The notes under the pieces are model-generated. The model made no database searches, was not told the origin of the DNA, and worked only from the letters and a program-made list of their open reading frames with translations. The position numbers and the translations under genes were made by a program. Shown one piece after another: positions 3,277 to 62,686 of a DNA stretch of 64,000 bases. Numbering within the stretch: position 1 is the stretch's first letter; the number at the start of each line of letters is the position of its first letter. This DNA comes from Candidatus Latescibacterota bacterium (GTDB lineage: Bacteria > Latescibacterota > UBA2968 > GCA-2709665): positions 192,001 through 256,000 of the forward strand of contig CAXXXF010000006.1 in NCBI GenBank assembly GCA_963667175.2, written 5' to 3'.

Positions 3277-4824
3277 ATGACCAGGCGAAGACTGCCCATC
3301 GGCATTCAGACCTTCAGCATAATCAGGGAAGAGAACTACTACTACGTTGATAAGACGGTCCACCTGCGGCGATTGATCGACGAGGGTACGCACTATTTTC
3401 TATCGCGTCCGCGTCGCTTTGGCAAAAGCCTGTTTCTGAACACGCTGAAGGAACTGTTCGAGGGCAATGAGCCGCTGTTCGAAGGACTGCACGTCCACGA
3501 CCATTGGGACTGGTCCGTTCGCTATCCTGTCTTATGCCTTGACTTTGGCAGCGGCGATTTCAGTAAGCCGGAGTTCCTGCACAAAGAGGTGATGGCGCAG
3601 CTGGATGCCGTAGAAAAAGATACGGGTGTTGAAAGCCACTACGACACCGCTTCCGCACGCTTTCGTCATATCATCCGAATGCTGCACAGCCAGGCGGGAC
3701 AGCGCGTTGTCGTTCTTGTTGATGAATACGACAAGCCGATTCTCGATGCCCTGGAGGCGCCGGAGACCGCGCGCGCCAACCGGGACTTTCTGCGCGGTCT
3801 GTATTCCACGATCAAGTCCTGTGACGCCCACGTCAAATTCACGTTCCTCACGGGCGTCAGCAAGTTCTCCAAAGTTCAGCTCTTTTCCGGACTCAACAAT
3901 CTCACGGACATTACGATCGACCCACAGTATTCCGATCTATGCGGGTACACGGAAACGGACCTCGATACGGTATTCGCGCCGGAACTGCCCGGTCTGGACA
4001 GGGACGAGATCCGCGACTGGTACAACGGCTATAGCTGGCGAGGCGATGAGAAGGTCTATAACCCCTTCGATATCCTCCTGCTGTTCCGAAAGCGCAGCTT
4101 TGAAGCCTACTGGTTCGAGACCGGCACGCCGACGTTCCTCATCGAAACCCTGTTCAAACGCCGCGTCAGTTCCCTGAAACTCGACGACATGATCGGAAGC
4201 AGCGACTTGCTATCGACCTTCGACGTGGATGACATCGCGACAGAGGCCCTGCTGTTTCAAACCGGGTACCTGACCATTAGCGGTGAGGAGAACCTCGGCG
4301 GCAAGTCCTTCTATCGTCTGGGCTATCCCAACCGCGAGGTGCGCCAGAGCCTCAACGAGAGCCTGTTGGACTACCTGGTGAACGACTCGACGCAGCAGAT
4401 GACGAACAGCGTGCAGCTCTACCGCTTGCTGGAAGCCAATGACTTCGTCGGTCTCAAGACCTTGTTCCACGCCTTTTTTGCCAGTATTCCCTATGACTGG
4501 TACACCAACAACGACGTCGCCAATTTTGAAGGCTACTACGCCAGTGTGTTCTATTCCTATTTCGCGGCATTGGGTCTCAATATCACTGTAGAGGACAGCA
4601 GCAGTCATGGACGTGCGGATATGGCCGTTCACTTCAACGAAAACGTCTTCCTGTTCGAGTTCAAAGTGGTGGAACTGGCGTCTGCGGGCGCGGCGATGGC
4701 GCAATTGCAGGATAGGGCATACGCGGACAAATACCGCGGCCTGAACCAGCCGATCCACCTGATCGGGGTCGAGTTCAGCAAGGATACCCGCAATATAACC
4801 GCGTTTGAAGTGGCCCGTGCGTGA
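3277..4824 (+). CDS. AAA-ATPase-like protein with C-terminal PD-(D/E)XK nuclease (PDDEXK_9-type)
   Basis: LPIGIQTF, YYVDKT, SRPRRFGKS (Walker A), LVDEYDKP (Walker B), GRADM...FEFK. Confidence 0.92.
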   Translation: MTRRRLPIGIQTFSIIREENYYYVDKTVHLRRLIDEGTHYFLSRPRRFGKSLFLNTLKELFEGNEPLFEGLHVHDHWDWSVRYPVLCLDFGSGDFSKPEFLHKEVMAQLDAVEKDTGVESHYDTASARFRHIIRMLHSQAGQRVVVLVDEYDKPILDALEAPETARANRDFLRGLYSTIKSCDAHVKFTFLTGVSKFSKVQLFSGLNNLTDITIDPQYSDLCGYTETDLDTVFAPELPGLDRDEIRDWYNGYSWRGDEKVYNPFDILLLFRKRSFEAYWFETGTPTFLIETLFKRRVSSLKLDDMIGSSDLLSTFDVDDIATEALLFQTGYLTISGEENLGGKSFYRLGYPNREVRQSLNESLLDYLVNDSTQQMTNSVQLYRLLEANDFVGLKTLFHAFFASIPYDWYTNNDVANFEGYYASVFYSYFAALGLNITVEDSSSHGRADMAVHFNENVFLFEFKVVELASAGAAMAQLQDRAYADKYRGLNQPIHLIGVEFSKDTRNITAFEVARA

Positions 4825-59432: not shown

Positions 59433-59520
59433 AGTCCGTTCCACCGTCGACCGTTCCGGACCGTGGCGATCAACCTGGCGGTCGCAATTTGCGCCACTGT
59501 GGAACTTATTCACGGAGAAT

Positions 59521-60438
59521 ATGCATATGATCCCCCTGATCAGCAGCCTGTGCTACGGAACGCTCGAAGTCTGCCAGCTTCCAAGGACCTGGTGGAAGGT
59601 CCTGCTCCGGAACGCGGGCATTCTCGACGAAGAATACCCCGACGTGAGCGAAGGTCTGGACAAGTCCGTCCTCGAAGTGCTGAATCTGGACACAGAGACG
59701 ACCCTGGCGTATTTAAGAGAGCACAGGCCCGACTACCTCCGGTTCGAAGCCTGGGTCCTCGGACAGAACGACGGAACGCTCGATGGAAGGGCGATCGTCA
59801 ACTGGAACGATTCCGTGCGCGCCCGCGTTCATACCAGGCCGGACAAGCTCGAAGAAACCACGAGCGACGTCGGCATTCCCAACGACGGCGCGATCACGTC
59901 AGCCGTGATCCTCAACAGCCTCCAGGACTGGACGCTCTTCTACAAACGCGACCTGAAGGGGGAATTCTCGGCCCTGGGCGGCCGCGTGGTTCCGCTCGTC
60001 TCCAGCCTGGACTACGGTCCTCTCAACGTCTGCCAACTCCCTCGTACGTGGCTGAAGATACTGCTCAGGTCCCGCAACCTGCTTCATCCGGACTATCCCG
60101 ATATGACCGAAGACGGGCTGGACCCCCGAGTTCTGCGCGTTGTCAACGTCCGGCCGGACGACGCCGTCCGTTTCATCAGAGAGAATGGGCCTAACTATCT
60201 CGATTTCGAAGCATGGGTTCTGCAGAAAAACGACGGACGTGTCGACCCGCGCGCCGTGGACGAGTGGAACAGCTTTGTGCGAACCCGCATCCATACCGAT
60301 GAGAAAATCGTGGATATCCACGATACATTGGGCCTGGAAAACGACGGAAGCCTGACGTCGGCCGTGGTCCTGAACCACGTTGAAGACTGGCGCTTCGCGC
60401 ATGCCGACCTGACGGGCAACACCGCCGGTTCGATTTGA
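59521..60438 (+). CDS. Internally duplicated DUF5069-like protein
   Basis: Two copies of PL.SSL.YG.L.VCQLPRTW.K.LL...YPD...GLD...YL.FEAWV. Confidence 0.7.
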   Translation: MHMIPLISSLCYGTLEVCQLPRTWWKVLLRNAGILDEEYPDVSEGLDKSVLEVLNLDTETTLAYLREHRPDYLRFEAWVLGQNDGTLDGRAIVNWNDSVRARVHTRPDKLEETTSDVGIPNDGAITSAVILNSLQDWTLFYKRDLKGEFSALGGRVVPLVSSLDYGPLNVCQLPRTWLKILLRSRNLLHPDYPDMTEDGLDPRVLRVVNVRPDDAVRFIRENGPNYLDFEAWVLQKNDGRVDPRAVDEWNSFVRTRIHTDEKIVDIHDTLGLENDGSLTSAVVLNHVEDWRFAHADLTGNTAGSI

Positions 60439-60539
60439 CCGGCAGACGCAGCCTGAAAGCCGCCGGGGTTTCTACGCTTGAAAATGGCAACCATAAACGC
60501 TCGTCTGTTTCGACATTTGGAAAGCCACCTTTTTTTTTG

Positions 60540-60568
60540 TTGACATCATCCGAACCGTGAATTAAAAT
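60540..60568 (+). promoter_or_regulatory. Near-consensus sigma70 promoter with T-tract UP-like element
   Basis: TTGACA-17 nt-TAAAAT preceded by a T run. Confidence 0.75.
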
Positions 60569-60627
60569 ACCATTAAATTCAGGTATTAGTTTACATTGTC
60601 GGCAAACAAAACCGGCCGTTCCGGAAA

Positions 60628-61428
60628 GGAGGTGATATTCGAAACCACGTCGTTAAACGTCTCGCCGCTGTACGTCTTGTTTCAGGCGGTGATCGGCGGA
60701 ACAACTGGCTACAGCCGGTCACGGACCTGTTCGCGTTCGAAAATGGGAGGTGATAGAAGAAACCACGTCGATAAACGTTTTGCCTGCTGTACATTTTACG
60801 TGAGAAACTGTGGCTCGGGGCAATAGCTGATTTGGCCCGTTGCGCGATGTGAGTGATTGAACGATTCCGAAAAATCGTGTATCACGGCCTTTCATATCAC
60901 CGCCACACCTTCTTGGTCGATCCCGGTATCCCATCAAGCTCAGTCCTTCATACGGTCTAATCACCGTCAATAATTCTCCAAATTCACGTGAATCGCTGTC
61001 CGTGGGGTGGTCGGGCTGTACGCCTGCCGCGTTAATCACGGCGTCCGCCCGATTCACGTGAATCACTGTCCATGGCGGGACTGGGTGGCGCGCCCTGCGC
61101 CTCTATCACGTTTGATCTCCCTGCTTTCTTGATTCGCTGCCATTCGTGTGGCCGGGCGGGGCGCCATGCGCCTGTATCCCGGACGATCACGGACCTGACG
61201 CGAACCACAGTTCGCGGTGCGGTTTGGTGACGTGTCTTCCGCTGTAATCTCCGAGTATATCAACACAAGCAGGGGAATCGCAGTTCCGGTGCGGTTGTGC
61301 GGCGCGCGGTCAGAACGAGACCGCACGGGGCAAGCGGTCGTGCGAGCGGTTCAAGTCTCCCAGAGGCCGCCCGCGTTTGGAACGGAGGTGATATTGGGAT
61401 TCACGTCGCGACACGTTTCGCCGCTGTA
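60628..61428 (+). repeat. Three copies of a 45-46 nt element (60628-60672, 60746-60791, 61384-61428)
   Basis: Consensus GGAGGTGATA-N8-CACGTCG-N2-AMACGT-YTYGCC-(T)GCTGTA. Confidence 0.85.
60982..61078. repeat. Two direct repeats, each starting with the perfect palindrome ATTCACGTGAAT (70-bp period)
   Basis: ATTCACGTGAATCRCTGTCCRTGG at 60982 and 61052. Confidence 0.8.
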
Positions 61429-61510
61429 GGTCTATGCGTAGACGATAATCGGCTGCAGTTTCGGTTGACGCCGATCACCAAGTTGTCCACGTTTGGAAGG
61501 GAGTCAGGAA

Positions 61511-62686
61511 ATGGATCGTGAAGATCTGAGAGAAAGAGTGGAAACACTGGAAGAAAGGCTGCGCGGGCAGAAGCGGGTAATTGCCGGTTTGATCGTCGTG
61601 TTCCTCTTCAGCGCGTCGCCGGCGTTTACGCAGGCAACGAAGTGGTTTGGGAGTATACTGCCGTCAAAGCTGACGTCGCCAGGCCTTCGGCACGGCGCTT
61701 CCCGCGGTGACGCGCGATTTGGCCATCTTTCGCCAAACGAGCCGGAAATCCCGCTACCGGAGACCGGTACGGGCGGACTGAGCAAGATCGCTCCTGAGAC
61801 AATCGTCGATGCCGGGGACACGTTGCGGGTGGGTGAACTTCAGATCGTAAATGCAAGTGGCGCGGTTGTCGCCGCCATCGGGGCGGGTCAGTCCGGAAAC
61901 GGCGCGCTGACGATCAGGAACAGCAATGGCGACGTGGTTTCCGTTGTGGGCGTCGACTCCAGGGGGCACGGCACCGTGGGGCTCCTCAATGCGTCAGGTC
62001 GAATCACGGCCGCGATGGGCGCGGATCGGACGGACGACGCCAATGGCGTGGTCGACGTCAAGAGCGCAACGGGTTCCGCGGCGGCACTCGCCTTCGATGG
62101 GGCCGGAGACGCCGCCGTTACGGTGTTCAACAAAGACAAAAAGCCGGTTTCCGGATTCGGTATCGACAATAACGACAACGGCGCCCTGCGGATCTCGAAC
62201 GCGTCGGGCGCAATCGTTGCCGCGATGGGCGCGGATAAGACGGACGACGCCAATGGATGGATGCACGTCAGGAATCAATCAGGAACTGCTGCGGGCTTCT
62301 CCGTCGACCGGGACGGAGACGGCCTGGTCATCGCGGGCAACCGGAACAACGATGAGGTTTCGATCATGGGCGCGAATGAAAACGGCCACGGCATCATCGG
62401 GTTCAAGCACGCGTCCGGGCGGGTTGTCGTTGGCATGGGGGCCGATTCGACCGGCGTGGGCGTGCTGAATATTGAAGGCGGCAGATTCCGGGCCTTTCTC
62501 GATGCCGACGGCAACGGAGTCGCGAAAACCCTGGGACGACGCGGGAACCTTCGCTGGTCCTCTGAAGCGTCTTCCGACGGCGGCGCGTCAACCGGGCTGA
62601 TCGGGGATTTCGACGGCAACGGAAAGGTCGATTTCGCGGACTTTGTGACGTTCGCCGCAAATTACGGCAAGACGAGCGGGTCGTGA
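61511..62686 (+). CDS. Exported/membrane-anchored beta-repeat protein with C-terminal EF-hand/dockerin-like motif
   Basis: N-terminal coiled coil + hydrophobic segment, about 22-aa repeats (G.G.L.I.N.SG..VA.MGA), DFDGNGKVDFADF. Confidence 0.75.
   Translation: MDREDLRERVETLEERLRGQKRVIAGLIVVFLFSASPAFTQATKWFGSILPSKLTSPGLRHGASRGDARFGHLSPNEPEIPLPETGTGGLSKIAPETIVDAGDTLRVGELQIVNASGAVVAAIGAGQSGNGALTIRNSNGDVVSVVGVDSRGHGTVGLLNASGRITAAMGADRTDDANGVVDVKSATGSAAALAFDGAGDAAVTVFNKDKKPVSGFGIDNNDNGALRISNASGAIVAAMGADKTDDANGWMHVRNQSGTAAGFSVDRDGDGLVIAGNRNNDEVSIMGANENGHGIIGFKHASGRVVVGMGADSTGVGVLNIEGGRFRAFLDADGNGVAKTLGRRGNLRWSSEASSDGGASTGLIGDFDGNGKVDFADFVTFAANYGKTSGS

Follow-up and report, generated by a model that had tools for sequence, protein, structure and literature searches.

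The STAB-SD of the Bacillus thuringiensis cry3A gene (Agaisse and Lereclus, 1996) is a Shine-Dalgarno-like (SD-like) sequence that lies 129 nt 5' of the start and pairs with the 16S rRNA; the account of it in PMC4113751 gives it no role in initiation and has the mRNA stabilized through the bound 30S subunit. Ribosome standby sites have been described for MS2 coat and tisB (PMC5934652, PMC7708055), and the hbs mRNA of B. subtilis is protected by a strong SD (PMC5737220). Eukaryotic-like WD40 repeat proteins of sponge symbionts are the subject of PMC12993501, which counts eukaryotic-like protein (ELP) domains per metagenome-assembled genome (MAG). Here we describe a repeated element with a perfect SD in the leader at positions 60540-61510 of a 64-kb window (the whole stretch of DNA that was analyzed) from a sponge-associated Candidatus Latescibacterota MAG, and compare it with these systems. 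The MAG, G000 or the window genome below, is 95% complete with an estimated contamination of 4.75%, and the DNA holding the stretch comes mostly from sponge metagenomes.

The best explanation of the alignments is a genus-specific, sequence-conserved, unstructured, non-coding module that would lie in the untranslated RNA of a variable WD40 locus. Our tentative proposal for what it does, to which we give a probability of about 0.4, is that the module is an orphan SD that would dock 30S subunits on long untranslated RNA, either as a STAB-SD-like stabilizer or as a standby site.

A repeated element complementary to the 16S rRNA 3' tail

The pattern GGAGGTGATA-N8-CACGTCG occurs with zero mismatches at 60628, 60746 and 61384, the three places where an earlier note on this DNA had put copies of a motif; the chance expectation is 0.31, and none of 100 shuffles reached three. 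A repeat search returned these copies too, 79-85% identical over 39 nt, with GCTGTA following each. Two smaller details of the earlier note also hold, namely a CGTTY..GAA stretch 5' of every copy and a 1-nt insertion in copy 2, before GCTGTA. The homologues that it had proposed to look for exist: a profile hidden Markov model (HMM) built from the three window copies and searched with nhmmer at E <= 1e-3 found 72 copies, 3 in the window and 69 in 13 congeners. Two copies in G013 are identical, which leaves 71 distinct copies for the alignment; start codons were counted in the 68 anchored copies, and fold z-scores were taken on 69. The block spacing that the earlier note had called fixed is not so in this larger set, where 1-2-nt indels interrupt the N8 spacer in 9 of 71 copies (alignment read by eye).

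Both 16S genes of the window genome end ..GGATCACCTCCTTTCTA. Entropy within the element is lowest over (G)AAAGGAGGTGAT, a block that complements this 3' tail exactly, over 13 nt in copy 1. In the window genome the 13-mer GAAAGGAGGTGAT has three occurrences, of which two are the antisense of the 16S genes and the third is copy 1. Conservation peaks on this block, with a mean pairwise identity of 0.87-0.88 for the SD 12-mer against 0.46-0.58 for the element's own 5' flank. The adjacent WD40 genes score 0.79 at codon positions 1+2 and 0.65 at position 3. So sharp an identity peak in the shape of an SD argues for selection on ribosome complementarity and not for passive homogenization. An SD without an ATG, as the earlier note had described it, is the rule throughout: neither ATG nor GTG stands 4-10 nt after GGAGG in any of the 68 copies. 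As judged from these comparisons, the repeat is real, genus-wide and under selection.

The two 16S genes of the window genome differ clearly from each other, and RNase Y is likewise encoded twice (contigs C3, C7, C12 and C17); these duplicates may be sequence of a second organism or true paralogues.

A genus-specific leader at a WD40 locus of variable size

The 971-nt leader was matched in all 14 congeners, and 26 genomes spread over 8 other genera in the family and order gave no match. A sequence-only covariance model made from the 71 distinct copies and searched over 151 genomes of the phylum gave strong matches confined to the genus (14 of 14 congeners and G000); of the 136 other genomes, 8 had matches, all weak (E 1.8e-4 to 9e-3). 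The window genome has the motif at this locus only, and every strong match in the congeners falls inside the array described below, apart from a decayed copy beside a solo WD40 gene in G007. This distribution led us to reject a dispersed repeat of the miniature inverted-repeat transposable element (MITE) or repetitive extragenic palindromic (REP) type. The decayed element in G007 belongs to a second locus (L100, C1:1251001-1259000, at ~3939-4035), where it has lost the SD core and lies ~940 nt 5' of the solo gene, which encodes a signal peptide.

In the congeners the locus has a constant synteny of DHDPS, p305, a long leader, a tandem array, p391 and, on the opposite strand, a creatininase gene. 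Orthologues of p305 (80-90% identity) stand 5' of the leader in 13 of 13 congener loci, and p391 has orthologues at 70-85% identity in six congeners. At 37 more distant p305 loci, neither the motif nor a WD40 array was found beside p305. The features of the window version, in order of position, are as follows.

59521 to 60438, plus strand: p305, an open reading frame (ORF) with two internal repeats and no Pfam family; a syntenic anchor, with orthologues 5' of the leader in congeners.
60540 to 60568, plus strand: head promoter TTGACA-17-TAAAAT, matching 11 of 12 sigma-70 consensus positions; hexamers conserved in 14 aligned head leaders.
60569 to 60592, plus strand: conserved block after the -10 hexamer (..TAAA..GTATTAG..), with columns that do not vary among 14 aligned head leaders.
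60617 to 60700, plus strand: motif copy 1, type B; its 13-mer GAAAGGAGGTGAT (60624-60636) is perfectly complementary to the 16S 3' tail.
60735 to 60822, plus strand: motif copy 2, type A, with the tail ..TACGTGAGAAACTGTGGCTCGGGGCA; SD GGAGGTGAT at 60746-60754.
60982 to 61181, plus strand: D1 repeats, 3 x ~70 nt and ATCAC(G/C)-rich, found by repeat search; congeners match leader-query positions 518-768.
61270 to 61324, plus strand: presumed deletion scar, GAATCGCAGT plus GTCAGAACGAGACCGC, suggested by sequence resemblance read by eye.
61371 to 61470, plus strand: motif copy 3, type B; SD GGAGGTGAT at 61384-61392; orthologous copy in congeners.
61486 to 61513, plus strand: ribosome-binding site and ATG of p391; the 5' part (CCACGTTTGGAAGGGAG) partly repeats the 5' half of the motif.
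61511 to 62686, plus strand: p391, an ORF of no Pfam family with a coiled coil, hydrophobic N-terminus, Gly-rich repeats and dockerin-like C-terminus.

The sequence supports reading 60540-61510 as a promoter-driven, non-coding leader that would be transcribed toward p391. The promoter is the one named in the earlier note, and both its -35 and -10 hexamers are kept in 14 of 14 aligned head leaders. The first convincing gene start 3' of it is the ATG of p391 at 61511, again as the note had it: a Pfam search with five ORFs of the leader (76, 115, 87, 70 and 74 amino acids) found no family and a single chance-level match (E 0.089). The note had recognized no Rfam family either, and an Rfam scan of 59500-62500 with E up to 10 gave three chance-level matches (E 6.4-9), all of them off the motif copies.

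Several parts of the leader have features of their own. The block at 60569-60592, nearly invariant among the 14 head leaders, contains in its window version an inverted repeat AATACC..GGTATT and may serve as an operator or form a 5'-terminal RNA hairpin. Copy 1 includes a degenerate third SD-like word, GGCGGTGATC, at ~60684-60693. In copy 3 the SD, 127 nt 5' of the p391 ATG, is followed by a small hairpin GTCTA..TAGAC and then by ATCGGC..GCCGATCACC; its orthologue stands 5' of p391 in G014, G005, G002, G003 and G006. Weak HMM matches (model positions 2-39) lie directly 5' of p391 in three congeners. The D1 family, a second family of repeats absent from the earlier note, is part of a segment specific to the first leader and conserved in congeners; the D1 copies are 63-71% identical, form small GC hairpins, are kept in the first leaders of congeners and are apparently more numerous in G012. 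The two homologous halves of p305 (CQLPRTWW.. is repeated) are ~45% identical to each other in relatives, and the gene is widespread in Latescibacterota. In G002 (locus L038, 7170-8501) the frame through the copy-3 element is open into p391, and the p391 start annotated there may need checking.

The genes of the array encode proteins of ~690 amino acids with 13-14 WD40 repeats and an N-terminal signal peptide in each, which we read as secreted 14-blade proteins. The paralogues at the site are ~60-67% identical to one another, and their number runs from none (G000, G003 and G006) to about a dozen (G007, G013, G010 and G001). The motif is always in sense orientation, on the gene strand, and occurs in the head leader (1-1.6 kb in congeners) and in the long spacers, each of which holds 0-2 copies, ordered as a type B copy and then a type A copy ~117 nt later. 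The element lies ~110-840 nt 5' of the next WD40 or p391 start (coordinates read by eye). A search of the spacers of one large array (L027) found no sigma-70-like promoter in gene orientation.

At this site (60439-61510) WD40 genes are absent from the window genome, and we presume that they were lost and that 61270-61324 is the scar of the deletion. On a reading by eye, GAATCGCAGT (~61275) resembles the stretch directly 5' of a WD40 ribosome-binding site and GTCAGAACGAGACCGC (61309-61324) the stretch directly 3' of a WD40 stop codon, with no WD40 ORF between the two. With the WD40 genes lost, the ~940-nt leader would be a head leader (promoter, copies 1 and 2, and D1) fused to the last spacer (copy 3). 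In G003, the 5' remnant of a WD40 gene, comprising the signal peptide and the first blade, runs into the copy-3 region, so that at least in G003 the empty state is a deletion.

Contigs from sponge metagenomes differ from the window in ways that point to variation of the leader between strains; none of the contig pieces listed covers the whole stretch, and the interpretation is confined to the parts covered. The X5 contig joins 60673 to 61430, having lost 756 nt between the GCTGTA words of copies 1 and 3, and in the X1 and X2 contigs the sequence 5' of 61371 differs from the window and reads like an array spacer. The locus can be described as a hypervariable syntenic site, polymorphic between species and apparently also between strains.

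Explanations for the element

We propose that a single long transcript from the head promoter would carry several hundred untranslated nucleotides before each cistron group; given the conserved head promoter and the spacers of L027, in which no internal promoter was found, one long transcript is the simplest picture. The core of the module would be an orphan SD, (G)AAAGGAGGUGAU, 12-13 nt long, exactly complementary to the 16S 3' tail and with no ATG or GTG at initiation distance. Such an SD could dock 30S subunits on stretches that are otherwise untranslated, and the docked subunits would guard the RNA that follows against decay or polarity, or keep ribosomes on standby for the next cistron. 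Docking is proposed because a startless SD on untranslated RNA has a precedent in the STAB-SD of cry3A. From the sequence we infer transcription as one RNA, 30S binding and an effect of that binding. A more elaborate version, in which one to three modules per long spacer of a polycistronic WD40 array load ribosomes on hundreds of untranslated nucleotides without RNase J, shield segments from RNase E/Y or Rho, and also act as joints at which cassettes are gained and lost from strain to strain of the symbiont, seems unlikely to us.

Several observations weigh against 30S docking. Exact GGAGGTGAT is kept in only 46 of 71 copies and the exact 12-mer in only 26 of 71, and copies related by duplication are not independent, so neither are counts made on them. 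Docking leaves unexplained why ~45 nt 3' of the SD are also conserved (CCACGTCG 0.79, AAACGT 0.71, GCTGTAC 0.71). At initiation distance 21 of 68 copies have TTG and 9 have CTG, and some of them may start short ORFs. The SD does not stand out as accessible: in a 210-nt context the 12-mer is unpaired with a mean probability of 0.36, which places it at percentile 0.43 among its surroundings. Where some WD40 genes are separated by short spacers the element is missing, and the X5 contig has only one hybrid copy left. RNase J was not found in G000 (the best match to TIGR00649 reaches 32.5 bits where the cut-off is 400); the genome does have RNase Y and RNase E/G.

The alternative that survives best would make the element a relic that does nothing itself. 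It would be a ribosome-binding site that was duplicated, or a piece from the 5' end of an old coding sequence, carried along in WD40 duplications and homogenized by gene conversion or unequal crossing-over. All copies do lie in one recombining locus, which holds the identical pair in G013 and, in the X5 contig, a deletion between two copies; the ribosome-binding site of p391 is itself a partial copy of the 5' half of the motif; the copy beside the solo gene in G007 is decayed and SD-less; and weak look-alikes stand inside coding regions of G146 and G014. A relic fits poorly with the pattern of identity, in which the SD 12-mer exceeds codon positions 1+2 of the WD40 genes while the 5' flank falls below their third positions. 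Conversion alone would yield neither so sharp a boundary nor one that matches the 16S complementarity. Orthologous first-leader copies, moreover, are alike across species in surroundings that cannot be aligned, and nine copies translated in their most protein-like frame matched no Pfam family. We consider a relic unlikely.

The look-alikes may be chance or a hint of a coding origin. The one in G146 (L101, 3949-4188) sits within a truncated GNAT gene, at a distance of 2.5 kb from a p305 homologue, and is the best match outside the genus (E 1.8e-4), with a local alignment score of 27 against 15.9 +/- 2.0 in shuffles. The one in G014 (L102, ~3836-3914) is in a DNA-methylase-like ORF (E 0.0023). 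A full-length GNAT homologue in G151 is unlinked to p305, and tblastn with the GNAT fragment found nothing near p305 in 47 loci. The two look-alikes point to different genes, so that neither origin is established, and a GNAT or methylase origin is a weak lead only.

Short upstream ORFs are a somewhat less probable explanation than a relic. The SD would here drive small peptides from near-cognate starts (TTG, CTG, ATT or ATC), and the act of translation would regulate or protect the RNA through attenuation or a block to Rho. The TTG and CTG codons just mentioned fit this, as do two plus-strand frames with hardly a stop in the core (22 stops in 1624 codons and 19 in 1615, where the third frame has 182 in 1554), a TTG..TAG ORF of 11 amino acids in window copy 3 and a GTG-started ORF of 17 amino acids in copy 2. 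Against it, 38 of 68 copies have no ATG, GTG, TTG or CTG at initiation distance, indels shift the N8 spacer in the nine copies mentioned above, and stops come at differing places between copies. Nor is there a coding signal over the 71 copies: synonymous changes make up 0.32, 0.28 and 0.30 of the single-nucleotide codon differences in the three plus frames, with no excess in any, and codon-position entropies of 0.953, 0.951 and 0.975 in the most protein-like frame show no periodicity. The two frames look protein-like because the nucleotides are conserved. The reading of the element as coding for a peptide was rejected on these frame statistics, the 1-2-nt indels, the insertion in copy 2 and the differing ORF ends; the earlier note had argued the same way from the insertion.

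We give equally low odds to an array of protein-binding sites, either a DNA operator, like the multi-site operator listed in the earlier note, or a site for an RNA-binding protein, with ACGT words at ~10-nt steps recognized by some regulator and the likeness to an SD secondary. In its favor, what is conserved is sequence and not structure and includes CCACGTCG, AAACGT and GTACGT 3' of the SD; the fixed orientation, the repeats at ~58 and 117 nt within a spacer and the recurrence of ATCAC(C/G) words downstream agree with it. It would require, however, that the best-conserved block be the complement of the 16S tail by coincidence, which is unlikely, and the conserved neighborhood (DHDPS, p305, p391 and creatininase) holds no regulator gene. 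CsrA, the obvious candidate for binding GGA, was not found in G000 (no matches to PF02599). Titration of CsrA/Rsm was also rejected as a candidate in its own right, with no conserved hairpins found. Sigma-54, extracytoplasmic function (ECF)-type and boxA-like readings, checked by eye only, were set aside: the GG that they require is missing from the window copies, spacings disagree, and a boxA-like word is present in some type B copies only.

The earlier note had also suggested a riboswitch-like RNA in tandem, in which a stem GGUGA/UYGCC around an ACGU/ACGU hairpin would sequester the SD, and had remarked that the changes in copy 2 keep the pairing. The element does stand in a 5' leader behind a strong promoter, and the consensus can form these helices: 79.8% of cells pair, and sliding the partner by 1-3 columns lowers this to 27-46%. 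This does not generalize to the variation among the 71 copies, which ignores the pairs. Shuffles pair at 80.7%, with 495 of 500 at least as high; double-sided changes number 3 where 7.5 are expected; and three of the pairs are disrupted in 24-31 of the 71 copies. An alternative helix of CCACGU with ACGU..GG fares alike (494 of 500 shuffles as high), and a scan of all column pairs of the alignment (A2) gave only scattered, non-stacked pairs. RNAalifold predicts 0 pairs on the 71 copies and, with types A and B taken apart, consensus energies of only -2.3 and -2.15 kcal/mol, where single sequences average -34 and -38. Fold energies of the 69 copies, as z-scores from 25 mononucleotide shuffles each, average +0.13 in the upstream segment, +0.56 in the core and -0.07 in the downstream segment; the core is thus slightly less foldable than its shuffles, and segments of the window leader score +0.50 and +1.12. 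We rejected a structured RNA on these grounds.

With the pairing, RNAalifold and z-score tests failed, no Rfam match on the copies and, downstream, secreted WD40 proteins and p391, which suggest no metabolite, a tandem riboswitch is very improbable, while another option in the earlier note, an RNA that titrates ribosomes, fits the complementarity to 16S. A conserved, SD-containing repeat whose consensus can pair is not in itself evidence for a riboswitch; here 71 copies made the structure testable, and the test failed.

Comparison with described systems

If 30S docking is the function of the element, STAB-SD-type control would extend beyond the Firmicutes and beyond RNase J into an uncultured phylum of the FCB group, and the locus would be an example of repeated startless SDs that punctuate an operon. 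For research on sponge symbiosis the locus itself may matter more, as a site where 0 to ~12 secreted, "eukaryotic-like" WD40 proteins share a conserved control region. The genes served by the element in the congeners are, like those treated in PMC12993501, WD40 repeat proteins of sponge-associated Latescibacterota; that paper, as far as consulted, describes no array or leader element, and the word "tandem" was not found in its text.

Ribosome standby sites resemble the element in their position, ~100 nt or more 5' of the real ribosome-binding site, where a 30S subunit would be held without initiating. As outlined in the sources cited above, those sites depend on single-strandedness next to a structured ribosome-binding site, whereas the element has a perfect SD of unremarkable predicted accessibility. 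The likeness to hbs, as far as the account in PMC5737220 goes, would be one of effect, in that ribosomes at a strong SD would shield the downstream RNA from nucleases; there, unlike here, the SD is the one from which the gene itself is translated, and RNase J1 is the nuclease.

The comparison with STAB-SD, as that element is presented in PMC4113751, is the closest. Both are SD-like complements of the 16S 3' end that lie far 5' of the real start, in a region that is, or here would be, untranslated; STAB-SD is not the initiation site of the gene that follows, and the present element would not be either. They differ in that STAB-SD stalls RNase J1, an enzyme of a family not found in G000, and in that it is a single short element of a Firmicute, whereas the present one is a module of ~60-100 nt, present 1-3 times in a spacer of a Latescibacterota array, with ~45 nt conserved beyond the SD. 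The element is most aptly called an orphan SD module in the leader and long spacers of a hypervariable array of secreted WD40 genes, with a putative function that we infer from its likeness to STAB-SD.

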